Virus record (IMG/VR): IMGVR_UViG_3300045538_000396
Coordinates: 1 to 54,896 of that record
DNA: 54,896 nucleotides
Strand: one strand, 5' to 3'
DNA from: a virus
Taxonomy: Duplodnaviria > Caudoviricetes
Positions 20,001 through 41,600 of this stretch are shown here, piece by piece (position 1 is the stretch's first letter; the number at the start of each line of letters is the position of its first letter). Both the position numbers and the translations under genes were made by a program. The notes beneath the pieces were generated by a model. It was not told the DNA's origin, searched no databases, and saw only the letters and a list, made by a program, of their open reading frames with translations.

Positions 20001-20577
20001 TTTCTAAATTCCTTATGATGGGTAATTCTTGTGGTTGCTTTTTAAACGTTCTCCTGATTCTTTGCCTAGTTGTACTAAATTGATTGTAGTAAAAAATATT
20101 AGGAACAATATTTACTTTACCCGTTTCTAGGGTAGGGGCTACGGTATCAAAAGGAATATACTTTTGTTTTTGAAATACAAAAAACTCTACGCTTTTATGC
20201 TGTAGGTTTTGGGCTACGGCTTGCCGGCTCACACCCCTCAAGCGTGCTAGTTCAGATTGCGTTATAAGCCCAATAAAGCCATTCGTAAAGTCGTGTAGGG
20301 TAATCTTGTGCCAAAGGTCATCATTGATGGGTAAAAGCCCTGTAGCGAGTTTTTCTGATGGTTTTAAAATCTTCCTTAACGCCACAGGAGGTATCTGTTC
20401 TAGCAGGGCCTCTATCTTAATCGCCACAGCCATTTCTACGTTTCTAAAAGCAGCGTCAAAAGTTTTGCTTATAGAATAAACAAAAGGTTTACTTTCGGAA
20501 TCAAAGACAACTACTTGATGATTGGTATCAATCACATCGTGTCTGAAACTTAACTTAGGGCAAGGTTTGATAGACAT
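19981..20577 (-). CDS. HTH DNA-binding protein with HicB-like N-terminus
   Basis: ITQSELARLRGVSRQAV HTH. VYSISKTFDAAFRNVEMAV..IPP resembles the HicB fold signature. Confidence 0.55.
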   Translation of the reverse strand: MSIKPCPKLSFRHDVIDTNHQVVVFDSESKPFVYSISKTFDAAFRNVEMAVAIKIEALLEQIPPVALRKILKPSEKLATGLLPINDDLWHKITLHDFTNGFIGLITQSELARLRGVSRQAVAQNLQHKSVEFFVFQKQKYIPFDTVAPTLETGKVNIVPNIFYYNQFSTTRQRIRRTFKKQPQELPIIRNLENEKELG

Positions 20578-21131
20578 TACTTTTTCTCTATAAGTGAAAT
20601 ATGAATTTTACCACCACAGTTAACATCATAATTTAATGCAGCCTGTAGTGCGGTGCGGATTAACTCTTTTCCACTTTTATTTCTGGAAACGTAGGCAGCC
20701 CCCAGTGCAAAAGATTCTCCACTACCTATAGCCACAAAAGTAAAATCAGGAATTTGTACGACAGAAAAATCACTGCCAACCCGGTAGATATTATTTTTAA
20801 AAATAATTAGGATATCTATGTCGTAGTTCTGGGGTTCTCCGCCCTCATCCTTTTCTTCTTTCCAAGCATCCGTAATCACGGCTCGTTTAATAAAATCGCC
20901 GATTTCAAAAGCCGAGGTCGCACCTTCGATAAGTTTACTGTTTGCCATAATTAAACTATCCAACCGAGCCGAGCCCGCACAGCCAATGTAGATGCTGAAC
21001 TTAGAGCCCTTACTCCTGAGTAAACGCCACTTGTTACCGAGGTCGTATTTAGGTCCGTTTGAGTAGGTAACCCTTGAGTCGCTACCCAAGTGAATACCGA
21101 TATCGTCTTTGTATGCAGCAATTACAGTCAT
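20577..21131 (-). CDS. Ntn-hydrolase (HslV/proteasome beta-like) protein
   Basis: N-terminal M-T nucleophile, GSDSRVT, AIGSGESFALGA and DVNCGG motifs. Confidence 0.85.
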   Translation of the reverse strand: MTVIAAYKDDIGIHLGSDSRVTYSNGPKYDLGNKWRLLRSKGSKFSIYIGCAGSARLDSLIMANSKLIEGATSAFEIGDFIKRAVITDAWKEEKDEGGEPQNYDIDILIIFKNNIYRVGSDFSVVQIPDFTFVAIGSGESFALGAAYVSRNKSGKELIRTALQAALNYDVNCGGKIHISLIEKK

Positions 21132-22757: not shown

Positions 22758-22798
22758 AAAAGGGGGCTCCCGCGTCCAAGGGAAAGCCCCCTTTTTTT
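22758..22798 (+). terminator. Intrinsic terminator
   Basis: AAAAGGGGGCT...AGCCCCC-TTTTTTT. Confidence 0.75.
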
Positions 22799-23227
22799 AT
22801 GTTCGTTGTGTAGCCAGAAGTTCCGGCCCCGGTTGTTACTACTTCAGTTACAAACATAAAGGTGAGGGGCTATCATAGAATGCAACCTAGCAATGCAGTT
22901 AACTTGATAACGCTCACGCGACTTAATATCCAATCTATGAATGCATAGCAATGCCATTAGAGGGCAGAGGAATGTTATACCCTGTTAGGTATGTCCTATG
23001 AAGCAGAGGCACCCTGTAGGGCACTATAGAGAGGAATTAGGGGTATTGTTTTGCACTGTGTAGACAGAGAGTGTGCTTTATTATGTCAAGTATCCAAAAA
23101 AACAGTTAAGAAGTCTAGGTTTTTTAAAAAGTATTATCTTTCCTATATAGAACGCTTCTGATTCATCAACAGATAAATAAAATATAGGTTAAGTAAGTTT
23201 ACATTTATAACAAACTAATAAAATGAC

Positions 23228-23355
23228 TATAAGTAACTTATAGAATTACTTATATATATACTTATATAGAAACTTATATAGTTACTTATATATACTTATA
23301 TGAATACTAATAAGTAACTTATATAGATACTTATAGATATATATATATACTTATA
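23228..23355. repeat. AT-rich ACTTATA iteron-like array (candidate replication origin)
   Basis: Nine ACTTATA copies at 23236, 23248, 23260, 23272, 23284, 23294, 23317, 23329 and 23349, plus the palindrome TATAAGT-A-ACTTATA at 23228-23242. Confidence 0.7.
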
Positions 23356-23414
23356 AGATTTACTATTTAATTGTATGTAGATACATATATATTATATATA
23401 AGGAGCCGAGAGAG

Positions 23415-23482
23415 GCGAAAAAAGGGCGAAAAAAAAGCGAAAAAAGAAAGTTCTTGACAGGTTTTTGAAATCGTGAGAAACT
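23415..23482 (+). promoter_or_regulatory. Putative early promoter with phased A-tracts
   Basis: GCGA(6-8) at 23415, 23426 and 23437 (11-bp period). TTGACA at 23454-23459, 17-bp spacer, TGn-GAAACT -10 (non-consensus). Confidence 0.55.
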
Positions 23483-23527
23483 GATTTTCGGTTCGGTTTT
23501 AACGCTAAACACTCTAAGGAGAATAGT

Positions 23528-23809
23528 ATGGCATTACTTAAATTACAACCTAAAAACATCACTTGGTTTAAACGAGATGCTAAAGGTAGTAAATCATACA
23601 GAAGAATTGATAATGTTATAGATATCACCCCCGAAAAGGCTATGTCTATTCTTACAACAGAGACCGACCAGGGTTACTCAGATGAGATTATCTATTTCTG
23701 TTATAAGGTATTACTAGATAATGGATATCTAAGACAATTAAGAGACCATAATTACAAGAGACCCTTACTAGCAAGGGCACTAGAGTTAAGGAAACAGGGA
23801 GTTATTTAA
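23528..23809 (+). CDS. Hypothetical early protein
   Basis: TAAGGAG RBS. Confidence 0.8.
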   Translation: MALLKLQPKNITWFKRDAKGSKSYRRIDNVIDITPEKAMSILTTETDQGYSDEIIYFCYKVLLDNGYLRQLRDHNYKRPLLARALELRKQGVI

Positions 23810-23831
23810 CTTAAGTTTTATAGGAGGCTAT

Positions 23832-24071
23832 ATGCCAAAGCAATACTATGTAGTTCATAGAGATACAGGTGTTCTCTATTACAAACAAGGATTTTACACT
23901 TTGTTTGATGTGATGGAACACTTTATATGTGATTCAGAAAGCACTCCAGATGAGATAGATAACTTTATCTCTATGGGGGTAGATACTTTTTGTAATTCTT
24001 TTATGACCAGCATAGGTCTACGAGTTACCAATCTAAGACTTAATAGCAATGCCTTGGAGAATAGTTTATGA
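23832..24071 (+). CDS. Hypothetical early protein
   Basis: AGGAGG RBS. Confidence 0.75.
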   Translation: MPKQYYVVHRDTGVLYYKQGFYTLFDVMEHFICDSESTPDEIDNFISMGVDTFCNSFMTSIGLRVTNLRLNSNALENSL

Positions 24072-24138
24072 GTTTGTTCAATAGAGCATATTACTTTATT
24101 CTCACTTTAATTGAACACCTTACTCGATAGGAGAGCCG

Positions 24139-24234
24139 ATGGATATACTAATAACCCTAGTGTTTGCAATAGTTACATTCTATACACTAAGTAAGATTAT
24201 CGACATATGTTTTAACAAAAAGGAGAGCCAATGA
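24139..24234 (+). CDS. Membrane mini-protein (31 aa), ends KESQ
   Basis: MDILITLVFAIVTFYTLSKIIDICFNKKESQ, flanked by junction motifs. Confidence 0.65.
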   Translation: MDILITLVFAIVTFYTLSKIIDICFNKKESQ

Positions 24235-24689
24235 AAAGCACATATATAGTAAAAATTAAAGAAAAGTTATCTCTACCTGCTGGTGCTTATTACATCGGCG
24301 ACCCTTGTTATATATTAACTGCAGAAGTATATGACAGAATCCTAATGCCTGCTTCCTACGAAGCAGAAAGAAATAGGCGAGATGCTTATGAGTTTTACAG
24401 CAACCCAAAAAATGAATATACTCAGCGTGGTGTTGTTATGCGTACGCTTCACGGAGATGGTTGTTTTACAAGCAATATAGGCTTCACTTTTCCCGTAGAC
24501 TCAGGGCAAATTGCCTGTATTGATATCGCTTCTATTGGAATAAGAGAACTTATTCATAGTGGTATCGACAAAAAATGTGTGTATCTTTATACCGCTAGTA
24601 AACCCTTTGATTGTGTTCGACACGACAATGGGGTGCTTAGATTCAATAGTGTTTCTATTAACACAAGTGATATGGAGGAGAGCCAATGA
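24231..24689 (+). CDS. Conserved phage hypothetical protein (YYIGDPCY family), ends EESQ
   Basis: YYIGDPCY, TLHGDG and FPVDSGQI motifs. Confidence 0.85.
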   Translation: MKSTYIVKIKEKLSLPAGAYYIGDPCYILTAEVYDRILMPASYEAERNRRDAYEFYSNPKNEYTQRGVVMRTLHGDGCFTSNIGFTFPVDSGQIACIDIASIGIRELIHSGIDKKCVYLYTASKPFDCVRHDNGVLRFNSVSINTSDMEESQ

Positions 24690-24823
24690 TTGATATGGGT
24701 GCATATGATTCTATCGTAGAAAGAACAATATCAAGTAAAGAAGAACAGGAGACAGCATCTGCAAGATTTAAAGAAAGAGTAAAGAAAATGTTGGAGGAAT
24801 TAGATTCAAAGGAGAGCCAATGA
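24686..24823 (+). CDS. Mini-protein (45 aa), ends KESQ
   Basis: MIDMGAYDSIVERTISSKEEQETASARFKERVKKMLEELDSKESQ between two junction motifs. Confidence 0.7.
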   Translation: MIDMGAYDSIVERTISSKEEQETASARFKERVKKMLEELDSKESQ

Positions 24824-24963
24824 GAAAAGATTTAACTTACATTACCATTCCTATTTACCACTCTGAAATTGATAAAAAAATAATCATAGACCGAGAACTA
24901 ATGATTCGAGATTTTGAAGAACAAATTGACCGCATCGAATTAAAACTAAAGGAGAGCCAATGA
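24820..24963 (+). CDS. Mini-protein (47 aa), ends KESQ
   Basis: MRKDLTYITIPIYHSEIDKKIIIDRELMIRDFEEQIDRIELKLKESQ between two junction motifs. Confidence 0.7.
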   Translation: MRKDLTYITIPIYHSEIDKKIIIDRELMIRDFEEQIDRIELKLKESQ

Positions 24964-25274
24964 GCAACGATAAAACAGAACATAATGGTTGGACAAACTA
25001 CGCCACTTGGCGAGTCAATCTTGAAATGTTTGACGCCCCCGACTATTCGTGGGACATTACTGCCGATACTGATGTTCACGAACTCGCACAAAGATTAAAA
25101 GATTCTGTGATATGTTTTGTGGACGAAACTTGCGAACTTGCTACTACGAGAGGTTGGGCAATAGCATTTGTAGATGAAGTTAATTTTTACGAGATTGCCA
25201 AGCACATGATTGAAGCCAATGAATTCTATTGTGAGATTGGCAAGAAAGTAATCGAAAACCATAAGGAGAAATAA
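24960..25274 (+). CDS. Conserved phage hypothetical protein (NGWTNYATW family)
   Basis: NGWTNYATWRVNLE..VNFYEIA motifs. Confidence 0.85.
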   Translation: MSNDKTEHNGWTNYATWRVNLEMFDAPDYSWDITADTDVHELAQRLKDSVICFVDETCELATTRGWAIAFVDEVNFYEIAKHMIEANEFYCEIGKKVIENHKEK

Positions 25275-25275
25275 A

Positions 25276-25446
25276 ATGAACGAAGAACTGAAAGAATACA
25301 CTTGCAATATCGTAATAGATTTTGGTAGAAGTTATATGGCAAAAGACGAGCAAGAGTTTAGGCAAATGGTTACAGATGATTTTTATGAGGAACACGGCAT
25401 AAAATTAGCCTACTCAGAAATTAGAAACATTACAGAGGTAAGATGA
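25276..25446 (+). CDS. Acidic mini-protein (56 aa)
   Basis: AGGAGAAATAAAATG start context, MNEELKEYTCNIVIDFGRSYMAKDEQEF... Confidence 0.7.
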   Translation: MNEELKEYTCNIVIDFGRSYMAKDEQEFRQMVTDDFYEEHGIKLAYSEIRNITEVR

Positions 25447-25607
25447 TTAGCATAGGCGATAAAGTAAAAGTTAAAGACCAAGATATCACCGGCATAGTTG
25501 TTGAGATGTGGAATAATAAAGTAGTTATTCAGGACCTGGACTCCGAATATAAATCTCCCGATGACCGACTAGAGTATCGCATATCAGACCTTGAGGAGAG
25601 CCAATGA
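25443..25607 (+). CDS. SH3/KOW-like mini-protein (54 aa), ends EESQ
   Basis: MISIGDKVKVKDQDITGIVVEMWNNKVVIQD..., ATGA overlaps at both ends. Confidence 0.7.
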   Translation: MISIGDKVKVKDQDITGIVVEMWNNKVVIQDLDSEYKSPDDRLEYRISDLEESQ

Positions 25608-25798
25608 AATTAATAAAAAATAATTGTGAGGCTTGTGATTACAACGCACCTTACATTAATAATTTAAGCGACAAGGTAGAAGATAGATTATGCGGTGCTT
25701 GTTTAAATGTTTACGAAAAAGAGAGCCAAGATTTTAACGCACCTTTCTTCTTTGATTTTCGCAATGCTAGCAAATTGATATTAAAGGAGAGCCAATGA
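25604..25798 (+). CDS. Zn-binding mini-protein (CxxC..CxxC), ends KESQ
   Basis: CEAC and CGAC motifs, flanked by junction motifs. Confidence 0.7.
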   Translation: MKLIKNNCEACDYNAPYINNLSDKVEDRLCGACLNVYEKESQDFNAPFFFDFRNASKLILKESQ

Positions 25799-25968
25799 GC
25801 AAACCCATTAGTTATAACGCCGTTACAGATATCTGTATCAGAATAATGGACTTCTTAGTGCCCGAAAAAGAAGAAGACGATAGTTATGATTTTGAAGCGC
25901 AAGATGAGTTAAGAACAATTGTTGAGGCTTGGCTTCGACAAAACAACCTACCTTTTGAGGAGAAATAA
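25795..25968 (+). CDS. Acidic mini-protein (57 aa)
   Basis: MSKPISYNAVTDICIRIMDFLVPEKEEDDSYDFEAQDELR...FEEK, starts in a junction motif. Confidence 0.7.
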   Translation: MSKPISYNAVTDICIRIMDFLVPEKEEDDSYDFEAQDELRTIVEAWLRQNNLPFEEK

Positions 25969-25969
25969 A

Positions 25970-26371
25970 ATGAGTATTACTAAAAGCGAATTAGGAACAC
26001 TAGCAAGAAAGAATAGAGGTCGTGGAATTAACGCAGAAGATGTTGTTCAAATACTTAGGTCAAACAACATAGTTACTATGTCGTGGGGCACAGAAAAATT
26101 AACTGGATTTGGTAGCCCAACTTTCTATGCACGCAATAATAATATAGCAGACGGATTCGGTTTCAAAGTAAACGGAAGATTACATAAAGGCTGGGTTTTA
26201 ATAACCGTTAACTTTGCAGATTTGTTTGATATTTATTTAACCAAACCACAACTCAAGTTTGGTAGCACAGAAGGTATGAAACCAACTGTTACCAATGTGT
26301 TCATAGAAGACTTAATGGAAACCCTAGATTACTTAATCGAAACACCCAAAGAGGAGTTAATCAATGCCTAA
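25970..26371 (+). CDS. Conserved hypothetical protein (FKVNGRLHKGWVLIT family)
   Basis: Start moved to ATG 25970 after GAGGAG. Motif is familiar from mobile elements. Confidence 0.8.
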   Translation: MSITKSELGTLARKNRGRGINAEDVVQILRSNNIVTMSWGTEKLTGFGSPTFYARNNNIADGFGFKVNGRLHKGWVLITVNFADLFDIYLTKPQLKFGSTEGMKPTVTNVFIEDLMETLDYLIETPKEELINA

Positions 26372-27062
26372 CTGGTGCAGTAACATCTTACGAATTACTT
26401 CTGAAGACAAAACAATCATTGATAAAATAGTCAAAGGAATTGAAAACGACGAGGGATTGTTTGCGTTGTTTTATCCGATTCCAGAGGAATTAAATTACCA
26501 AGTAGGAAACCCACCCACTAAAACAGACGAGGAAATACAAGCACTCAAAGAAAAATATGGTGCTACCGATTGGTATGATTGGTCGCTTAAAAATTGGGGT
26601 TGCAAATGGGACGCTTGTGATATTGATATCACCGACGGCGGAACAGATTCTTTATCTATAATATTTTCTACGCCTTGGGGTCCACCTATAGATTTTTATA
26701 AAAAGTTTGCCAACGATTATAAGGTTGAAATCTATGCTGATTACAGCGAGGAGGGTATGGATTTTTGCGGTAAGTTTCAGTCTTATATTTTAGATGGCGA
26801 AGTATATGCTAATGAAGATTACAGAAATATAGATGAAATGAGAAACGATATTCTGTCTTGCTATCTTGTGGCAAACAAAGATAAAAAAGTAACTCCAGAT
26901 GATTTCTTACATGAGGTGAGAAGTTTGTATTCAGAAAACTACCCTAAAGTTAATGACTATTACGATTGTTTTCAGGTCTTTAATGATTATTGGATTGAGA
27001 GCCGATTGGAAGATGATGAATTTTGTAAGCAGTATGGAATCATAAACGAAACAACTAATTAA
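26364..27062 (+). CDS. YubB/DUF1281 (Api92-like) ferredoxin-fold protein
   Basis: MPNWCSN, DWYDWSLKNWGCKWD, FSTPWGPP and YSEEGMDFCG motifs. Confidence 0.85.
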   Translation: MPNWCSNILRITSEDKTIIDKIVKGIENDEGLFALFYPIPEELNYQVGNPPTKTDEEIQALKEKYGATDWYDWSLKNWGCKWDACDIDITDGGTDSLSIIFSTPWGPPIDFYKKFANDYKVEIYADYSEEGMDFCGKFQSYILDGEVYANEDYRNIDEMRNDILSCYLVANKDKKVTPDDFLHEVRSLYSENYPKVNDYYDCFQVFNDYWIESRLEDDEFCKQYGIINETTN

Positions 27063-27072
27063 AGGAGGGCTT

Positions 27073-27240
27073 ATGTCCTGTGATTGCAGTAGTAAAAGAA
27101 AAAACGAAGACAGAGAGTATGTATTAACAGTTAAAGCGTTTATAACAGTAGACGCTTGTTGCGAAGATGTCGCAGAAGATTCTGATTTTTCATTATCAGA
27201 TGCAGATGACTGGGAAATTGTAGATGTCGAGGAGGCATAA
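27073..27240 (+). CDS. Acidic Cys-containing mini-protein (55 aa)
   Basis: AGGAGG RBS, MSCDCSSKRKNEDREYVLTVKAF...DDWEIVDVEEA, TAATG overlap. Confidence 0.7.
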   Translation: MSCDCSSKRKNEDREYVLTVKAFITVDACCEDVAEDSDFSLSDADDWEIVDVEEA

Positions 27241-27590
27241 TGAAAATAGAATTAAAAAGTATAGATATAAATCTTAAGTTTTCCGAAGAGACTGTAATGT
27301 TTATGGCAGATGTTTATGTTGAAGGAAAAAAGGTAGCCTATGCACAGAACGATGGTCGTGGTGGTGCAACTTACTACAACATCTACGCTAGACCTGAAAC
27401 CCTGTATGAAAGAAACCTCGAACTTGTAGAACAAGCAGAGGTTTATTGTGATGCCTTACCGGATGAATCATTAACCTACGAGTTTAATGGTGAGATGAAA
27501 ACAATAGAACTTAAGAGTTCACTCACTTATGTTATCGATAAGTTAGTCGAAGAATATATAGAGAATAAAGAATCTAAGAAGTCCGCTTAA
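27240..27590 (+). CDS. Conserved hypothetical protein (SEET..F.A..NDGRGG family)
   Basis: SEETVMFMADVYVEGKKVAYAQNDGRGG motif. Confidence 0.8.
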   Translation: MKIELKSIDINLKFSEETVMFMADVYVEGKKVAYAQNDGRGGATYYNIYARPETLYERNLELVEQAEVYCDALPDESLTYEFNGEMKTIELKSSLTYVIDKLVEEYIENKESKKSA

Positions 27591-27613
27591 CTTAACCCCA
27601 AAGGAGAAAGACA

Positions 27614-27931
27614 ATGCAACGAGAAGTAAATACGAAAGATATAAATACATTAGTAAATCATTTATCCGCTGAACAAAACAAAGATTTTATGTTTAACATC
27701 ATTTGCAATTTCTTAGAGGAACGCACTGGTGTTTCTATTAAGAAAACTTTTACCGGCAATGTAGTAATAAGTTTTGAGTTCTCTGTCGAGCAATCGGGAA
27801 ATGTTGATGATGTAAAAGAACAAGTTACACAACAGATAAAACAAGCATTGCGGTCAGATAGGTCGAGGCAAGGTTTCTATATCCTGACAGAGGAAGATAT
27901 CGATTTCAACAATATTGAATCACGCAAGTAA
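27614..27931 (+). CDS. Hypothetical protein
   Basis: AAGGAG RBS. Confidence 0.75.
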   Translation: MQREVNTKDINTLVNHLSAEQNKDFMFNIICNFLEERTGVSIKKTFTGNVVISFEFSVEQSGNVDDVKEQVTQQIKQALRSDRSRQGFYILTEEDIDFNNIESRK

Positions 27932-27948
27932 CCACAAAGGAGAGCCTT

Positions 27949-28968
27949 ATGGCAAAAGAAAAAGGAATGAGTCAGAAAGAAATGTATGAAAGTATTACTA
28001 ATAAAATCATTGAAGCCATTGAATCAGACAATGGAACTGAGTGGGTAAAACCTTGGAGAAACTTAATGTCTAACGAGGTTAGGTCTATTGACAATCGTCA
28101 GTATCACGGAGTCAATCAGATGATTCTTAATGCTCATCAGTATTATTTGCCCAATAAAGATAGATGCCACAGTAAAGTATGGGGAACCTATAAAGCCTTT
28201 AAGCGACACGGCTTTCGGATTGGCTCAGAACAATACAAAAAACATGCAGATATATATTACTTTAAGATGCTCAAAGTTAAGAACAAAGAGAAGTCTAAAG
28301 AAAAGAATAAGGATGTATACGATAAGATTCCAATGATGAGATTCTATAGGGTTTATAACGGTGGACAATGTGAGAATTGGGTTGAGCCAAAAAGGGAAGA
28401 AGTATTAGTTGCCTGGAGTGATGACCAACATTGCACACCAATAGAGAATAGAATTGCTGAACTTAATCCTAAGATTGTATTCGGAGAAAACCAAGCATAC
28501 TACTCACCTATTACTGACCATATTGGTATGCCTCATAAAGAACAGTTTGATACACCGGTTAATTACTACGCCACTTTATTACATGAGTTAACCCATTGGA
28601 CTAAACCCAAGCATAGGGCAGATAGAAGGCAAGACCTTGCGGACAAGAGTATGTCTGAGTTCAGAAATTCTTATGCGTTTGAAGAATTGGTTGCAGAGTT
28701 AGGGGCTACCTTCTTGTCATCACATTACAACCTGTCGAACGATACGGCTATGAGAGAGTGTCATATCCCTTACCTTGCGTCTTGGTTAGAAGGAATTAAA
28801 GAAGACTCTAAAGCCATATTTAAGGCATCCTCACTAGCACAAAAGTCTTCTAACTTTATCTTGGGTATCGTCCCTGAATGGGAGAAACAAGAGAGTGATG
28901 AAGATACTACTGGTAAAAATGAAACGACAGGTCTCGACTCTGAACTTGTCTGTCAATTAACTAACTAA
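27949..28968 (+). CDS. ardC: ArdC-family antirestriction protein (ssDNA-binding plus zincin-like domain)
   Basis: ITNKIIEAIE..WVKPW, YHGVN, AYYSPITDHIGMP, YYATLLHELTHWT, YAFEELVAELGA and YLASWL motifs. Confidence 0.92.
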   Translation: MAKEKGMSQKEMYESITNKIIEAIESDNGTEWVKPWRNLMSNEVRSIDNRQYHGVNQMILNAHQYYLPNKDRCHSKVWGTYKAFKRHGFRIGSEQYKKHADIYYFKMLKVKNKEKSKEKNKDVYDKIPMMRFYRVYNGGQCENWVEPKREEVLVAWSDDQHCTPIENRIAELNPKIVFGENQAYYSPITDHIGMPHKEQFDTPVNYYATLLHELTHWTKPKHRADRRQDLADKSMSEFRNSYAFEELVAELGATFLSSHYNLSNDTAMRECHIPYLASWLEGIKEDSKAIFKASSLAQKSSNFILGIVPEWEKQESDEDTTGKNETTGLDSELVCQLTN

Positions 28969-30656: not shown

Positions 30657-31271
30657 ATGAGCAAGAAAATTATCAGTGCAGCAGAATCTAATCTTGAGTA
30701 TGCCAACCGAGACCTAAGCGATTGGCTAAGGAATAGACGAACCGGTATTACAGGTACAGACGTAGGTAAAATTATGGGTGTATCCAAATGGGGTTCACCC
30801 CAAGATGTTTGGAAAGATAAGGTGGGTATTAGCCAACCCATTGAGGACAATGAATCAATGCTGTGGGGTCGTATCCTTGAAGACGTAATAGCAATGGAAT
30901 ACTCCAGGCGTAATTGTGTTCGTTATTACAAACCTGAAACCCTAAGAGGTAAAGAAGAGTGGATGATTGGCTCACCAGATGGAGTAATAGTAAATGATTC
31001 CAATGAAGACGAGTACGGACTAGAGGTTAAAACATCTCGAAGTCTTAAAACTTTTTCAAACGGTATACCTGCAGATTATGAATACCAATGCAGATGGTAC
31101 ATGATGATATGTGATTTACCTTATTGGGATTTGGCTGCTCTTATTATGGGTAGTCAGTATCAACAATTTAGAGTCATGAGAGATAATGATATAGAAGAAC
31201 AAATGATTAAAACTTGTGGAGACTTCTGGTTTAACCACGTGAAGGCACTGGTTCCGGTTGTTTCAATTTAA
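30657..31271 (+). CDS. YqaJ / lambda-exonuclease family nuclease
   Basis: WLRNRRTGITGTD, WGRILEDVI, GSPDG, GLEVKT and YEYQCRWYM motifs. Confidence 0.92.
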   Translation: MSKKIISAAESNLEYANRDLSDWLRNRRTGITGTDVGKIMGVSKWGSPQDVWKDKVGISQPIEDNESMLWGRILEDVIAMEYSRRNCVRYYKPETLRGKEEWMIGSPDGVIVNDSNEDEYGLEVKTSRSLKTFSNGIPADYEYQCRWYMMICDLPYWDLAALIMGSQYQQFRVMRDNDIEEQMIKTCGDFWFNHVKALVPVVSI

Positions 31272-31306: not shown

Positions 31307-31900
31307 ATGAACCTAAAATTTAATTTAGACTCTCAGTCAGCAAAGAAAACGCAGTACGAAGTACCAAGTGCAGGAGGTAGTGTTGCAAGACTTTACCGAA
31401 TCATTGACCTAGGTACACAACAAACAACCTACTTGGGTGAGTCGAAAATGACCCCTCAAGTTATGTTGGTTTTTGAACTACCTAGTGAACTAACCAAGGA
31501 TGGCAAACCTATGTCCATTAGTTCAATCTATACCAAGAGTTTAAACGAGAAGGCTAAACTTCGTGGTGTTGTTAAAGCACTCACCGGTACCAACATTACC
31601 GATGACAATGTTCGTAACTTCAACCTACAAGATTTAATCGGAAAGGTATGCACTCTTGATATTATTAACAAAACCGGTAAGGATGGAACAGTTAAAGCCT
31701 ACGTGCAGAACGTTAGTTCAGCATTAAAGGGTATGCCGGTTCCCGAGCCACACAACGAAACTTTAATCTTTGACCTTTCCGAGTTTAGTAAAGAAGTGTT
31801 TGATAAAATTCCTGCTTACTGGCAGAATAAAATTCAAACAACCAAAGAGTACGATGCCGTTGCAGTAAGACACGGAAGAACAGACGAAGTACCTTTTTAA
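31307..31900 (+). CDS. Putative OB-fold ssDNA-binding/annealing protein (NGO0469-like)
   Basis: ARLYRIIDLGTQ and SLNEKAKLR motifs, acidic SSB-like tail DEVPF. Adjacent to the exonuclease. Confidence 0.75.
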   Translation: MNLKFNLDSQSAKKTQYEVPSAGGSVARLYRIIDLGTQQTTYLGESKMTPQVMLVFELPSELTKDGKPMSISSIYTKSLNEKAKLRGVVKALTGTNITDDNVRNFNLQDLIGKVCTLDIINKTGKDGTVKAYVQNVSSALKGMPVPEPHNETLIFDLSEFSKEVFDKIPAYWQNKIQTTKEYDAVAVRHGRTDEVPF

Positions 31901-31911
31901 TTAAACAATCA

Positions 31912-31958
31912 GTATGGGGTTGGTTATTACCTCCAACAGCAACCACCCCATACCTTTT
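31912..31958 (+). terminator. Stem-loop/terminator after the SSB-like gene
   Basis: GTATGGGG-T-TGGTT...AACCA-CCCCATAC-CTTTT. Confidence 0.55.
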
Positions 31959-31970
31959 ACTGGAGGCTAT

Positions 31971-32387
31971 ATGCCAATCATTTTAAATAATTACAGTGAT
32001 ACGTTTGAAGAAACCTGGAAATTGTATCAAAGCACACACGCTAAGATGGTGCTCACAACAGTTAATGCTGGTGTTAGAAACGATAAAGTGTATATCCCGG
32101 TTAACATCGGCTCAAAAGAAACTGCTTGTATTAAGTGGAAGTTTCTACTTGATGAGGTCATTATCGTTGATGAAAAAATAGACGAGCAACTTCTTTTTGA
32201 GGCGGTTGCTCTTTATTGTCATGACCGTATTCGTGAAACCAAAAGCGGCAACTATAGACTACCTATGCTTGCAACACTACTACGTACAGATAGTACTGAC
32301 CTAGGCAAGACGGTAGAGATACTAGACTATATTAGAGAAGCGAAGCGTCTTACGGACAAACTAAAGGAGAATGCCAATGCTAAGTAG
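31971..32387 (+). CDS. Hypothetical protein, possibly replication-initiator-related
   Basis: GGAGG RBS before ATG 31971. FEETWKLY, GSKETACIKW and LPMLATLL loosely resemble phage initiator C-terminal domains. Confidence 0.55.
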   Translation: MPIILNNYSDTFEETWKLYQSTHAKMVLTTVNAGVRNDKVYIPVNIGSKETACIKWKFLLDEVIIVDEKIDEQLLFEAVALYCHDRIRETKSGNYRLPMLATLLRTDSTDLGKTVEILDYIREAKRLTDKLKENANAK

Positions 32388-32802: not shown

Positions 32803-32980
32803 TGAAATAAGTAGAATCTTAAGAGAACACGATAAATTATCAAATGAACTAGCCGTTATCAAAAAGAAAATGGAGGATGTTTCAATATCGCTGGGTATGA
32901 ACAAAGAGTATGCAAAAAACCATATTGCTTCTAGCGGATTCCTTCGTGGTTGGATTGTTGCTGCAAGGAATAACAGTTGA
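32789..32980 (+). CDS. Hypothetical protein
   Basis: GAGGTG RBS, overlaps both neighbours. Confidence 0.65.
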   Translation: MNEVNEISRILREHDKLSNELAVIKKKMEDVSISLGMNKEYAKNHIASSGFLRGWIVAARNNS

Positions 32981-33363
32981 TTATATTTAGTGCGTCACTA
33001 GAGATAGAGCCTGTAGCAAAAGGAAGACCTAAGTTTGTAGTTAGGGGAACTTTTGCTACTGCCTATACCCCAAAGAAAACGAGAGATTATGAGGCTCTTG
33101 TGTCGGAGTGGGCTAGGGCTGTATACAACAAACAACCTAGCGAAAAGGCTTTATCGGTGACTCTCAATGCTTTCTTCTGTAAGGCAAAAAGTAATAAGAA
33201 AAAATATCATACGCAAAAACCCGATGCAGATAACATGAAATCTGTATTGGACGCACTTAATGGCATTGTGTATAAAGATGATTGTCAGATTATTGAATTA
33301 AGAATAAACAAACACTGGTCCGATAAGGGCTCTGTTCATGTAGTTGTAAAGGAAATAGAATGA
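32977..33363 (+). CDS. rusA: RusA-family Holliday junction resolvase
   Basis: PVAKGRP, YTPKKTRDYE and KPDADNMKSVLDALNGIVYKDDCQI motifs. Confidence 0.92.
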   Translation: MIIFSASLEIEPVAKGRPKFVVRGTFATAYTPKKTRDYEALVSEWARAVYNKQPSEKALSVTLNAFFCKAKSNKKKYHTQKPDADNMKSVLDALNGIVYKDDCQIIELRINKHWSDKGSVHVVVKEIE

Positions 33364-34148: not shown

Positions 34149-35273
34149 ATGAGAGAAAGAGATAAAGGAAGAGCCCAGGAACGTAAACAAAGAAGAAACG
34201 TACTACTACTAGACAATAAGTTGTCTGACAAAGATAGGATACAGGTTCTCTTGTCTGAAATAACAGCCATGCGTGGAGAAATTAGAGACGCTAAAGCAGA
34301 GGCTCTATCGACTACGTTAATCAAAAATGAAATATTTAAACTATCCGATGCAAATCTAGATATACCTAAGTGGTTGTATCAAACAAAACCACAGAGCAGT
34401 AAGGTACTAGGTATTCCAACTATATTTGCTAGTGATTGGCACTATGGGGAAAAAGTATTCGCCTCTCAAATAGGTGGAATCAATTCCTTTGACCTTGCCA
34501 TTGCAGATAAACGAATTCAATACCTAGTCAATAATTCATTAGACATTTTGTTTAATCATTTGGCTAACCCCAAATATGACGGGCTTGTATTCCCGTTAGG
34601 TGGAGACATGTTCTCCGGAAACATACACGAAGAATTAGCGAATACAAATGAAGAAGAGATGATGCCTTGCGTATTAAGATTAGCGGGTAGGATTTCGTGG
34701 GCTATTAGCGTGTATCTACAACACTTCGACCACATCCATATTCCTGTTGTTACCGGTAATCATGGAAGAACAACACGTAAGCCTATCCATAAAAACAGAG
34801 TCTATTCAAATTATGATTGGCTATTAGGTTGTATTCTTGCCAAAGAATATAAGAATGAAAAAAGAGTTACGTTTCAAATCTCAGATGGAACCGACTGTCA
34901 ATTCCAAATATATAATCACCGTTACCTACTAACTCATGGAGACCAATTCTCAGGTGGAGATTCTATTATTGGTGCCATTGGAACAGTAGCGAGAGGCGAC
35001 TCTAAGAAAAGAAATAGAGAATCACAGATTGGTAAACCCTATGACACCCTTATTTGCGGTCACTTTCACCAACTATCTATTATGAAGAAACTCATCGTCA
35101 ATGGCTCACTTAAAGGCTACGATGAGTATGCTTACGCCCACAACTTCCCCTTTGAGGAACCTCAACAAGCCATGTGGTTGACTCACCCTGAACATGGTAT
35201 TACTTTTAATATGCCTATCTTCCTGGAAGACAACCCAAAAAAACAACACTACAAACTACCTATTACTTTTTAA
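34149..35273 (+). CDS. Calcineurin-like metallophosphoesterase with N-terminal coiled coil
   Basis: SDWHYGE, GGDMFSG, GNHGR, HGDQ, GHFH and NGSLKG motifs. Confidence 0.9.
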   Translation: MRERDKGRAQERKQRRNVLLLDNKLSDKDRIQVLLSEITAMRGEIRDAKAEALSTTLIKNEIFKLSDANLDIPKWLYQTKPQSSKVLGIPTIFASDWHYGEKVFASQIGGINSFDLAIADKRIQYLVNNSLDILFNHLANPKYDGLVFPLGGDMFSGNIHEELANTNEEEMMPCVLRLAGRISWAISVYLQHFDHIHIPVVTGNHGRTTRKPIHKNRVYSNYDWLLGCILAKEYKNEKRVTFQISDGTDCQFQIYNHRYLLTHGDQFSGGDSIIGAIGTVARGDSKKRNRESQIGKPYDTLICGHFHQLSIMKKLIVNGSLKGYDEYAYAHNFPFEEPQQAMWLTHPEHGITFNMPIFLEDNPKKQHYKLPITF

Positions 35274-36806: not shown

Positions 36807-37139
36807 ATGAAGAGAGGAGAAAAAAAATACCTAGATAAGTTATCGGGTATGGGATGCTATTGCTGTAAGGTTGACTATGGTATAGAAACCCCAGCCAATA
36901 TACATCATATAAGAGAGGGACAAGGCATGGGACAACGTTCTGAACATATCGGTGAAACTATACCCCTATGCGAAGGTCATCATCAAGGTAACTTTGACAC
37001 AACGAAACTAGCCTTCCATAATAATCCCAAGCAATGGAGAGAGAAGTATGGTTCAGAGGCAGAGATTGCAAGGGGCTATCATACTTTGATTCTCAAACTA
37101 GACAGTGAAAACCCCGGATGGGATGGTAACTTTGATTAA
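36807..37139 (+). CDS. Ref-like (DUF968) HNH recombination-enhancement nuclease
   Basis: GCYCC..PANIHHIREGQGMGQR..TIPLCEGHH..KYGSE motifs. Confidence 0.85.
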   Translation: MKRGEKKYLDKLSGMGCYCCKVDYGIETPANIHHIREGQGMGQRSEHIGETIPLCEGHHQGNFDTTKLAFHNNPKQWREKYGSEAEIARGYHTLILKLDSENPGWDGNFD

Positions 37140-38173: not shown

Positions 38174-38624
38174 TTGCCACCCTAAACAAAGAACCATCTT
38201 TCGTTTTATTTCCGTACAGTACCGAACGCCTAGGAGTCTCGCCATCTTTAGCAATAGCAATATGAATCCATGTAGAGCCACTAGAACTTGACTCTAGGAT
38301 AAGTTGGTCGAACTGCAGGTCGCTGTCTCTAAGAGCGTCAAAAACAGTATGAGGAAATTTGCCATGTACATTGAAGTCACATGCCCTGCAGTCTTTGTGG
38401 GCAGAATTTTTACTGCCACCGACCAATTTATTTAATTCTTCATTGCGATAAAAAGACATTATTCTAATGGGTAGATTAAAAATACTTCTTACTTCCTCTA
38501 AAAAGTTGCACATTCTCAAAAGATTTGATTTAAGATTTTCTGGAATAGTATTATTAATATTTTTATTTTTAGCGGTATCCGAATGTTCAGCCTCTGCTAA
38601 GGTAAAGTGCTCTGTAATTTTCAT
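38166..38624 (-). CDS. Endolysin, peptidase M15 family
   Basis: ITEHFTLAE, SFYRNEELNKLVGGSKNSAHKDCRACDF, FDQLILE and WIHI motifs. Confidence 0.92.
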   Translation of the reverse strand: MKITEHFTLAEAEHSDTAKNKNINNTIPENLKSNLLRMCNFLEEVRSIFNLPIRIMSFYRNEELNKLVGGSKNSAHKDCRACDFNVHGKFPHTVFDALRDSDLQFDQLILESSSSGSTWIHIAIAKDGETPRRSVLYGNKTKDGSLFRVANG

Positions 38625-41600
38625 TTGATAAGTCCATACTTCTTAAAGGCTTTACCTTGTAATTCAATAATTTCATCTTGTTGTCTGTTAAATTTATCGA
38701 GCGTCTCTTTGAATTCAGGAGTATTCATAGTTCCGTTAATTCTAGACCTTCTAACAAATCGGTTTCTTTCCTCAGTAACATTGCTTCTTTTCCTAGATAA
38801 ATTTATAAGTTCTTTATTGTTATATGGCATTCGAGCACTAGCAATAAGTCTCTGAGCAGAAACTTTATCTCCGGCATCTTCAAACTTCTTAATAATTGCG
38901 TCACTTCTTCTCCTCTTCTCGTCAAGTTCATAAATTAACTGAGCATTTCCGCCAGTTTTATCTGCCGTTCCAAAGGGCAATGGCGAAATGAGAGGATTAG
39001 ATGTAGGTTTATATACTGTTTCATCTCCTATTTCAGATAAAGATTTAACAAGTTGAACTGATTGTGTAACTGCACCAGTTGCGTAAACCTTAAATAAATA
39101 CTCAAAATCTTGGGGACTAAAATCAAGTTTTCCGTTTGTTACTTCATACAAACCTCGTGCAATATTATCAGCAACAGGGTTGGTACCCGCACGTGCAAGC
39201 ATCCATTGAGGAATAAGGCCCTGTGGGTCTTCACTTTTTATTTTAGAACCCGTCCAAGACTCGTTCGTAGTAGTAGCCACAAATGGTTTTAAGAGCGTGG
39301 GGGATAGATTCTGTATGACTCCTTCTGCACCTCCACCACTACCCGTGAATGAGAAAGAATTTAAAATATCTTTAGTAGCAGTTAAAGCATCCATATCGCC
39401 ATTAGATAACTTACTTAAATTTCTTCCAAGTTGAAATAACATACCAAGACCACGGATTCTGATTTTAATATATGAACCATCAGAAGCAGGCAAAACCATG
39501 TATTGTCTTTTAATGTAATCAGGAATTGCTGAAGAGTCTAAACCATCCATTTCGTCATACATAGATTGTTGTACCATTCCTGCAAGAAGTGCACTACCAA
39601 TTAGTCCCAGGCCTTTTTTCCCGGTAAGACTCTTAAACACACGCGATTGGCCTGCAATATTGGCCGTTGTGTAAGAATAAAATCCGTTTATTTTTCTAGT
39701 AATCAAACCTTTTCTGTCAAAATTTGCTGTTATATCCTTACCCAACAAAGTGGCTTGGTCTAAGGACATCCCTGATTTTCTACCTTCTTTGTAAGAGGCA
39801 AATCGTATAGAGTTCTCAAGAGAGTTCATTTCAATACTGACAAGATTACCAATACCTTCCAAAATCTGTCTACCGCCCTGATAACCCGCGCCTTTCCTTA
39901 ATTTAGCAGATAGATTATCTGTAATTTCACTGATAACAAGATTATTGTCCTCAACGAAGTTATGAGAACCCCCCTTAAGGTAGTACTCATTGTATTCACT
40001 TAATAGTTGGTCTTTCTTAATTGCATCATCAAAAGCCGCTCGATTACCGTCTTCTCTTAACTTCTTCATTAATAAGTTATGTTTTCCAACAGTTTTAATT
40101 GCTGAAGGTATTTGTTGCGTAATTGCCCATCTTTTACCTGCTATGGGAGTATTGGTTATATTAGTTAGCATATCAAAATAATCTGCTGTAAAATTTTTAA
40201 ATGCAAAAAATGGATTATAGCCCGTGTTCAAGGCGTTCCAGTTTTTAAGAATTTTAAAGTAAGCCTTACCAACAACACCCGTTGGCATCCAACCGCTATC
40301 CAAAGAACCATTATAAAGTTTTGCCATGTGCATGGCTATTTCATTAGTAGTATCAAACGCAAGATAAATTTTCTTGGACACACCTTGGCTATCAAATATT
40401 TGTAATGGAACTATGTTATCAGCAGGAGGTGGGACAGAAATTTCTTTAACAGTTAGTTGCCCATTTTTATCTACGTATGTCTTTTTAATGATTTTACTAG
40501 AAAACCCTTCAGATAATTGTTTTGCATCACTGTAGTTCATTCCACCTTCAACCAAAGCGTTAACAGTACTCATGGTTTCGGGGTCAACAATGGCAACAAA
40601 ATTCTTTTCAAATATATTGTTTTTAAGACCTAACTTTACAAAATTATATAAGGAATTTTGTGCGGGCGCAAAAGCAACAGCCCTTGCTCTTTTCTTTAAC
40701 ATCTGCAAGGAGTGTTGTAAAACTTCTCCTCTAGGTTTTTCACTATTTCCAATTCTGTATTTTAATGCAATATCAAGACCTGCAAATCCCATTGCGCCTC
40801 TTTCGTTATAAACGTTATACTTGGTAAAGTTCGGTGAGTTTAAAGAATCTTCATAAGCATAAAGAGGAGCGTAAGTTTTATATTTTGTTGTTAACGATGT
40901 GTAAGTTTCCATGGGTAGTATCCCAGCCGTAACGAGTTCTTTTAATGAACTATTTAATAAGTTGGTAAGATTCTCATGGGCTAAAGTAAATACCTGATTT
41001 AGTCTTGGTTCTCTTCTAGCCATATCTGCCAACAATTTATCTGCCTCTACCTTGGACCGAGGTGGCGTAAGTTGTCCAATCATTTTAGGTTCTTTTTCAA
41101 CCCACTCTTGGTAAGCAACATTTAAGTCTTCGGCAGACCTTAACTCTACAAATAAATCAAAATCAACCATAAAGTCTCCAGCAGCCGTTTTTTTACTTAT
41201 ATTAGGTCTTGTTTTCACGTATTGACTAAAAGCCACTTGCAACGGCTTCATAATTTGTCCATCAAAAATTGCTTGAGAAAGATTTATGTTTGCATTTTTC
41301 TTCTGATTTGCCAAAGATAGTTGCAGGAAAGCATTAAAATTGTCTGGAAGGGATTCACCTAGTTTAGTTTCAAGTTTAGAAACTAATTTCTGTAATGGTG
41401 AGTCATCACTAATCCAATGATTTTTAAATTTTTCCCATAGTGTAAATTTTTCTTTGTTATCACTTGCTTCGTCAAGCATTTTTCTTCGTTTTTTAGAAGT
41501 AGCAAAGAAGTCAGAACCACCACTGTCGTCTATTTCATCAGGTGGTTTAGGGGGTTCGGGAGGTACGGGAGGAGTATTTCTACTTTCTTGTCGACTACTA

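Follow-up and report, generated by a model that had tools for sequence, protein, structure and literature searches.

The window analysed here is the complete IMG/VR virus record IMGVR_UViG_3300045538_000396 (54,896 bases, estimated to be 99% complete), which stems from an uncultured podovirus-like phage of about 55 kb from freshwater. Its early/middle operon occupies the plus strand from about 23.5 to 37.4 kb, and small open reading frames (ORFs) at the head of this operon follow one another across a repeated junction of 14 nucleotides (nt), AGGAGAGCCAATGA, which is present in six copies, all on the plus strand and within 1.6 kb (Table 1). The junction consists of the Shine-Dalgarno (SD) sequence AGGAG, a fixed 5-nt spacer, AGCCA, and the stop/start overlap ATGA. 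In each exact copy, the TGA closes the upstream ORF, whose product ends in (K/E)-E-S-Q, and the overlapping ATG opens the next ORF. The upstream ORFs that end at the six exact copies encode 31, 152, 45, 47, 54 and 64 amino acids (aa). The cassette proteins are mutually unrelated, the lowest E-value in an all-against-all BLASTP comparison of 16 proteins being 0.077, and PHROGs, Pfam and NCBIfam assign no function to most of the small ORFs. A first-pass annotation of this DNA had described six exact copies and a variant at 24129, each copy supplying the SD sequence, the last codons and the TGA of one gene and the ATG of the next, with unrelated proteins sharing the (K/E)ESQ ending; positions, strand, the two mismatches of the variant, ORF anatomy and the BLASTP comparison all confirm this layout.

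The 15-mer RAGGAGAGCCAATGA has six exact matches (starting at 24220, 24675, 24809, 24949, 25593 and 25784), the expected number is 0.01, and six copies were reached in none of 100 shuffles. Over the whole record, the junction motif occurs six times in forward and not once in reverse orientation, the backwards control gives no match, and the 12-mers of the motif are the most repeated 12-mers of the genome. Exact identity between copies extends over 14 to 21 nt, and at most 21; the edges are sharp and the flanks are not conserved. The motif family comprises six exact copies, two intact variants and one decayed copy, and it is packed into about 1.7 kb except for one variant that lies 2 kb further on, with all exact copies confined to the initial 2 kb of the early operon. 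The variant at 27938, the decayed copy and the second junction type are additions to what the first-pass annotation described.

Table 1. Junctions, cassette genes and further features of the window (X3 is one of four metagenome runs, and L187 and L188 are relatives, described in the text).
Feature	Position	Strand	Remarks
Variant junction AGGAGAGCCGATGG	24129..24142	+	2 mismatches; precedes the 31-aa membrane-peptide ORF
g4, hydrophobic ORF	24139..24234	+	31 aa; tail KKESQ
Junction copy 1	24221..24234	+	
g5, phrog_20074 (function unassigned)	24231..24689	+	152 aa; tail EESQ
Junction copy 2	24676..24689	+	
g6, ORF	24686..24823	+	45 aa; tail KESQ; absent from one X3 contig
Junction copy 3	24810..24823	+	
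g7, ORF	24820..24963	+	47 aa; tail KESQ
Junction copy 4	24950..24963	+	
g8, DUF7249 protein	24960..25274	+	104 aa; PF23907
Second junction type GGAGAAATAAAATGA, left copy	25265..25279	+	brackets g9 to g12 together with the right copy
g9, ORF	25276..25446	+	56 aa
g10, SH3-like ORF	25443..25607	+	54 aa; tail EESQ
Junction copy 5	25594..25607	+	
g11, CxxC...CxxC zinc-ribbon ORF	25604..25798	+	64 aa
Decayed junction copy	~25716..25729	+	in frame inside g11; GAGAGCCAA retained, ATG and TGA lost
Junction copy 6	25785..25798	+	
g12, ORF	25795..25968	+	57 aa
Second junction type GGAGAAATAAAATGA, right copy	25959..25973	+	precedes g13
g13, ORF	25970..26371	+	133 aa; present or absent among relatives
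Variant junction AGGAGAGCCTTATG	27938..27951	+	precedes the ArdC-like gene; identical in L187 and L188
ArdC-N and zincin metallopeptidase, anti-restriction-like	27949..28968	+	phrog_7245, 1.1e-61; PF08401, PF18818
YqaJ/RecE-like exonuclease	30657..31271	+	phrog_434; PF09588, 8.2e-26
NGO0469-family phage replication initiator	31307..31900	+	NF046043, 1.8e-48
RusA	32977..33363	+	
SbcCD-like exonuclease	34149..35273	+	
HNH endonuclease-like ORF	36807..37139	+	
Structural set (PHROGs/Pfam)		-	large and small terminase, portal/adaptor, major head protein, tail fibres, endolysin
Structural set, further members (PHROGs/Pfam)		-	internal virion and DNA-ejection proteins; 3114-aa ORF

The junction contains more than a ribosome binding site (RBS) requires. 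Sites of the form GGAG-N5-start that open an ORF of at least 30 codons occur 19 times in the genome; six of them carry the spacer AGCCA and one AGCCG, and the other 12 have 11 different spacers, so that the earlier claim of a spacer exceeding the needs of an RBS holds. Five other ATGA overlaps in the operon have other spacers, and coupling as such therefore needs no AGCCA. After AAGGAG, AGCCA mismatches GUGAUC, the canonical continuation of anti-SD pairing, although the canonical tail may not be that of the host. All six copies use GAG, AGC and TGA, which account for 28% of the Glu codons, 9.6% of the Ser codons and 28% of the stops, respectively; if the peptide alone mattered, the probability of this choice would be about 0.0056 per copy. 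Because these codons are shared by all six copies, the identity of the junctions sits at the nucleic-acid level, and the ESQ tail merely results from the nucleotide sequence and is not a peptide tag. The junctions have no shared predicted RNA fold or hairpin, the motif lacks internal symmetry, and neither an Rfam family match nor a tRNA was found. Between 22500 and 28500, promoter-like sites (15 versus 22.7 expected) and terminator-like sites (3 versus 2.7 expected) show no excess, which argues that the array is one polycistron of overlapping genes.

The tails of homologous proteins vary. Five of seven non-self homologues of g10 end in EESQ (81-96% identity) and one ends in ELSR (85%); other tails are found in two homologues of 60% identity. 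Among 13 homologues of g5, some of which are encoded on contigs of 56-57 kb, nine end in GDE (66-82% identity), two in ESE (86-87%), one in ESQ (70%) and one in ESQ followed by four residues of read-through (91%). ESQ thus reappears at 70% identity; the tails are not passed on together with the gene, and that of g5 does not agree with the gene's own tree.

Natural rearrangements of the region are found in metagenome contigs. Part of 23500-27500 is present in 20 public runs from 13 studies; two of them contain all of it and may be the source, and no RNA run is among these 20. Contigs of four runs from four studies (X3 to X6) were aligned on 23000-28500 at a likeness of at least 80%, and the joint counts rest on the 15 joints listed of 25. 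Repeated-junction sites cover 4.9% of the aligned stretch, so that 1.46 of the 30 endpoints would be expected at them; 16 of the 30 lie no more than 5 nt from a repeated junction (binomial 8e-14). At least one end is located at a repeated junction in 12 of the 15 joints, and both ends are in four. Clustering of the breakpoints of relatives at the motif, which the first-pass annotation had set as the test of its cassette proposal, is thus observed in these contigs.

Several of the joints run from one junction to another. In X3, the joint 24675->24810 has lost g6 and the joint 24675->24950 has lost g6 and g7, and in X6 25593 is joined to 24950; in all three cases the 14 letters fit either side. 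A further junction-to-junction joint of X6, 25729->24129, connects the decayed copy to the variant copy, and the decayed copy (25716..25729) is also the site of the joints 25446->25730 in X6 and 27231->25733 in X3. One X3 contig lacks g13 through the joint 25972->26364, and another carries AGGAGAGCC directly 5' of g13, before 25969. Near the variant junction at 27938, the X3 joint 27539->27936 ends at the position at which record 14 of X4 resumes. The ends of contig pieces fall at 24689, 24950, 25608, 25785 and 27936. Foreign sequence abuts the motif at loose ends at 24221 (X3), 24809 (X4, 255 other letters) and 24964. Read in the frame of the motif, the letters before 24809 hold an open frame ending in ...VYD and those before 24221 one ending in ...IQY, and the letters after 24964 encode a different N-terminus; record 12 of X4 matches the window only from 25785 on, after 114 other letters. 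A contig of X6 (1045 nt) has the order g7, g10, g8, and its pieces differ from the window at 14 of 143, 21 of 151 and 2 of 322 positions, respectively. This unequal identity indicates that neighbouring cassettes of one molecule differ greatly in their history and that the switch occurs at the junctions. In record 25 of X6, g7 is present at about 90% identity and g10 comes next. The contigs of X3 to X6 were presumably assembled from words of 31 letters, and since the shared identity does not exceed 21 bases, the repeat should be too short to create chimeric joins.

The decayed copy inside g11 itself records a rearrangement. The gene contains an internal repeat (family D12) with a spacing of 93 nt; one homologue of its product (P0009, 45 aa) stops three residues past KESQ, and the N-terminal part of another (P0010, 36 aa) matches the C-terminal extension of the window protein. 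These two homologues and the repeat show g11 to be a whole zinc-ribbon gene fused at the decayed junction to the remnant of a second allele, the footprint of a tandem duplication.

A second line of evidence comes from L188, a marine contig of 3.7 kb that is about 81% identical to the window over 25958-28895 and is the sole diverged relative compared as DNA. It carries an ORF ending in ...FPWESQ, for which no homologue was found in the window, followed by GGAGAGCCAATGA, a g8 homologue, AAGGAGAACAAATGA, g13 to g17 and the ArdC-like gene. In L188, the GGAGAGCCAATGA before g8 is retained even though the sequence on both sides of it has diverged. L188 lacks the block g9 to g12, which in the window is bracketed by a 15-nt direct repeat of the second junction type. 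Both differences in gene content between the window and L188 are thus located at repeated junctions, and none is found at the five non-repeated junctions that the two share.

The reading we lean towards, with moderate confidence at most, is that the element is an RBS junction of the start-associated-sequence (SAS) type which doubles as a short-homology linker for cassette exchange, thereby representing a minimal relative of the PeSL shuffling of T4-type phages. On the mRNA, the junction would end one ORF and start the next by termination-reinitiation coupling; such translational coupling of the genes is suggested by their anatomy. The junction also recodes the last codons of any upstream gene to E-S-Q, and it delimits the small, unrelated and promoterless genes with which the early operon begins. 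On the DNA, the 14-21 nt of exact identity between copies would serve as the linker, and exchange through the motif may occur by annealing or short-homology recombination, possibly with the help of YqaJ. Exchange between copies within one genome would delete or duplicate cassettes, and exchange between co-infecting relatives would swap or reorder them. Every product would retain one intact junction, so that the frame, the SD sequence, translation and coupling would be kept. The identity of the junctions might be maintained by translational or regulatory selection, as may be the case for SAS, or by the exchanges themselves.

A number of observations weigh against this linker role. Five of the 30 listed endpoints lie at gene boundaries without the motif and nine lie inside genes; six of these nine form three same-gene pairs, which may be unaligned diverged stretches. 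From the non-motif endpoints and the same-gene pairs it follows that a filter for viable boundaries could give much of the same pattern. Between the window and L188, the non-repeated junctions equal the repeated ones in conservation, and conservation alone therefore does not single out the motif. In X6 and X4, g7 and g10 are joined via other spacers, so the exact motif is not required. The evidence consists of assembled contigs at a likeness of at least 80% and not of reads, and 10 of the 25 joints and most contig pieces are outside the listing. An identity of 14-21 nt is short for homologous recombination; for T4, homologous patches under 50 bp are cited (PMC2839356). The 14-mer occurs in at least 117 stretches of viral contigs and the 16-mer in 86 stretches of IMG/VR, and in each case all 80 listed stretches have a single copy; no second phage with an array of the motif was found among the 80 listed of the 86 IMG/VR stretches. 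Finally, no SSB (PF00436), RecT or other annealing protein was identified in the record. Motif-driven exchange and a translational signal filtered at gene boundaries are compatible with each other.

The recombination-type genes that are present encode the YqaJ exonuclease and RusA, and YqaJ is a candidate driver of short-homology annealing. The proposal of a plug-and-play cassette system driven by a YqaJ exonuclease and an SSB-like protein therefore stands in part: the breakpoint pattern it predicted and the exonuclease (PF09588) were found, and the SSB-like driver was not. The gene directly after that for YqaJ encodes the NGO0469-family replication initiator and not a single-strand annealing protein, and two ORFs near YqaJ gave nothing informative when their sequences were compared with the PDB.

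Among published systems, the modular shuffling at PeSL (promoter-early stem-loop) elements comes closest in mechanism, and SAS come closest in anatomy. In T4-type phages, recombination at PeSL elements is described to shuffle ORFans; the 3' ends of these elements carry an SD sequence and a start codon, and PeSLs flank ORFans, bound differences between close relatives and recombine into mini-circles (PMC2839356). The array resembles this system in that a conserved regulatory element flanks small ORFans in a hyperplastic early region, in that the element marks the limits of what has been inserted, deleted or replaced between close relatives (16 of 30 listed endpoints, and L188), and in that expression signals travel with the gene and give viable products. 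It differs from the system as portrayed in that paper, where a PeSL of about 100 bp combines a sigma-70 promoter with a stem-loop terminator and each cassette is a transcription unit of its own, whereas the junction of the window spans 14-21 nt, has no promoter or terminator signal, connects ATGA-overlapping genes in one polycistron and rewrites the C-terminus of the upstream protein. The open-access literature searched yielded nothing nearer than PeSL to a phage recombination linker at the level of the RBS.

The SAS of Cluster K mycobacteriophages are 13-bp motifs with AGGAG and conserved positions that are unable to pair with the 16S rRNA; they occur in one orientation, at non-structural genes only and in front of different gene families (PMC3203893), and a similar motif has been reported from Microbacterium cluster EF phages (PMC7302621). 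Their function is stated as unknown, and the accessible parts of both papers hold no mention of recombination at SAS (PMC3203893, PMC7302621). In the window, an asymmetric 14-nt motif likewise recurs at the RBS and is conserved beyond the needs of an RBS (six copies; 6 of 19 starts), in one orientation (6 vs 0), in the early operon and with unrelated downstream proteins. Both systems favour ATG starts, and in SAS, too, the stop codon of the preceding gene may fall within the motif. The AGCCA is non-complementary to the canonical anti-SD continuation, which may not be that of the host. SAS are reported in 10-19 copies over half a genome, at a distance of 3-7 bp from the start codon, and an upstream inverted repeat (ESAS) in an intergenic gap accompanies about half of them; in contrast, the motif of the window includes the start and stop codons, is packed into about 1.7 kb, and has neither an ESAS nor an intergenic gap (the overlaps are 4 nt) nor conserved flanks.

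The array also shares features with an integron, being a one-orientation array of promoterless, unrelated small genes with a repeated boundary site and one upstream promoter region, whose cassette content varies between relatives. However, no IntI and no tyrosine or serine recombinase was found in the record (PF00589 and PF00239: no match each; the PF00589 control was positive in 14 of 14 genomes), the site has no attC-like inverted repeat, and the boundary is a translation signal inside overlapping genes. Because integrase and attC-like site are lacking, the array is not an integron, and the description of it as free of an integrase in the first-pass annotation is upheld.

In a bolder form of the linker reading, the junction would be a selected dual-purpose adaptor, a 'translational integron' without a dedicated recombinase, that serves both as an attachment site for short-homology exchange and as an immediate-early coupling signal, and a population-wide pool of ESQ-tailed cassettes would serve host takeover or counter-defence. 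We offer this form tentatively and regard it as doubtful. In other samples, the motif adjoins at least four partner genes that this genome lacks, and the sole neighbour of the array with an anti-defence-type label is the ArdC-like gene.

If the linker drives exchange, PeSL-type shuffling of regulatory cassettes would be reducible to a bare RBS, SAS would gain a candidate second function, and a straightforward way of designing arrays of exchangeable genes with coupled translation would suggest itself. The array bears on the debate on phage mosaicism, in which homologous exchange at short linkers is set against random illegitimate recombination followed by selection. For the modules of lambdoid phages, short conserved boundary linkers have been proposed as preferred crossover points, a model that is largely conjectural compared with illegitimate recombination and selection. 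The array is a compact natural test case with a 14-nt linker of clear molecular role in six copies within 1.6 kb; the non-repeated boundaries of the same operon can serve as controls, and many natural variants are present in freshwater and marine metagenomes.

The main rival, possible but rather unlikely, is that the junction acts solely as a translational operator or start-associated sequence. A factor of the host or phage (protein, RNA or the ribosome itself) would recognise it in the mRNA, so that one set of immediate-early genes would be turned on or off jointly; the motif would not promote exchange, and joints would accumulate at it because only boundary recombinants survive. The anatomy is as that of the SAS of Cluster K (PMC3203893) and Microbacterium cluster EF (PMC7302621), the motif is retained in L188 at an overall identity of about 81%, and all copies are found near the head of the early operon, within its first 2 kb. 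The 5 of 30 endpoints at non-motif boundaries, the equal conservation of the non-motif junctions and the g7-g10 joins of X6 and X4 through other spacers fit this account as well. On the other hand, no candidate regulator, shared RNA structure or Rfam match was found in the window, and in relatives a different spacer or tail takes the place of the motif at corresponding gene ends, which makes it dispensable for each gene. The three junction-to-junction joints at which 14 letters fit either side keep exactly one copy, the identity level of one contig jumps at junctions, and the indel of g9 to g12 is bracketed by a different direct repeat, which a factor-binding site does not predict. Shared RBS regions of early genes are known to let one factor control a gene set in T4 (RegA/RegB type); no RegA- or RegB-like protein was identified in the window.

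A strict integron-like, site-specific system, in which an unrecognised recombinase or nuclease of the phage or host would act on the 14-bp site, is very unlikely. The exact and sharply delimited identity over 14 nt, the single orientation of all copies, the HNH-like ORF and RusA encoded downstream, and the many ORFs that have no assigned function would be in keeping with it, but no tyrosine or serine recombinase was found in the record, the site has no inverted repeat or attC-like hairpin, and joints are also located at the second repeat and at non-repeat boundaries.

It is scarcely credible that the array is a relic of the tandem duplication of one gene with its RBS, the coding parts of which have diverged beyond recognition. 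The second-allele remnant in g11 would suit such an origin, as would the similar sizes of g6 and g7, the junction flanks of which are 80% alike over 40 nt (family D5). The cassette proteins range from 31 to 152 aa and are of different kinds (DUF7249 in g8, SH3-like in g10, CxxC zinc ribbon in g11), without a related pair, other genes abut the motif in relatives, and fourteen neutral bases would not stay identical amid complete divergence. An array of paralogues was rejected, as the cassette proteins share no detectable sequence relation.

The remaining alternatives of the first-pass annotation, namely a common C-terminal ESQ tag and a spacer that merely extends pairing with the 16S tail, find hardly any credence even though six proteins end in (K/E)ESQ and the motif opens with a strong SD sequence: the tag was rejected because rare codons and stop are the same in all six copies and homologues end in ESE, ELSR, ESQ plus four residues or none of these, and the extended pairing is disfavoured because AGCCA mismatches the canonical GUGAUC, a textbook sequence that may not be the tail of the host.

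Among the cassettes, g8 is the most widely shared, with an identity of about 99% in X5 and X6 (1 and 2 differences in 322). Many contigs of X4 and X5 match only a short DUF7249 core at 24975-25042 and then diverge from the window; loose ends lie before it at 24975-24990 and behind it at 25033-25042, and the depth spikes there in X4. This core is probably a conserved motif common to the DUF7249 genes of other organisms. The proteins of the atlas that resemble g5 and g13 are hypothetical ones from viruses, and an AlphaFold model of g5 from 14 sequences was unusable (mean pLDDT 31).

Downstream of the array, the ArdC-like gene forms a conserved anchor. It is the best conserved gene across the relatives, being 100% identical in L187 and 83% identical in L188, and in each of the runs X3 to X6 the contigs deviate from it at only a few positions. 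L187 and L188 were the only relatives found in a scan of metagenome contigs. Viral contigs scanned with the ArdC-like protein and two alignments gave no match, and neither did genome contigs scanned with the same two alignments. A scan of viral contigs with TerL returned two fragments of 76% identity, both without the early region. In the phage collection, no blastn match to 23500-27500 and hence no close cultured phage was found, and tblastn returned distant relatives only (at most 40% identity for g5 and for TerL).

The minus strand carries a podovirus-like set of structural genes (PHROGs, Pfam). The C-terminal part of the 3114-aa ORF (38621-47965) resembles giant phage proteins (phrog_14770, 8e-46), and residues 1290-1392 hold a weak DprA-like stretch. 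An HslV-family peptidase-like ORF (20577-21131, minus strand; phrog_1040, 1.6e-15) adjoins the divergent junction of the structural and early operons. The non-coding gap of 860 nt from a terminator-like hairpin (22778-22793) to the first early gene at 23528 contains an iteron-like array at 23229-23349, in which the core ACTTATATA recurs mostly every 12 bp in six overlapping 40-nt copies; it may be an early promoter/operator region or an origin. A third repeated junction, TTTTAnnGGAGGCTATATGCCAA, is located at 23816-23838 and 31955-31977, with 91% identity over 23 nt; its copies precede g2 and an in-frame start at 31971, and the two proteins are unrelated save for their MP start.

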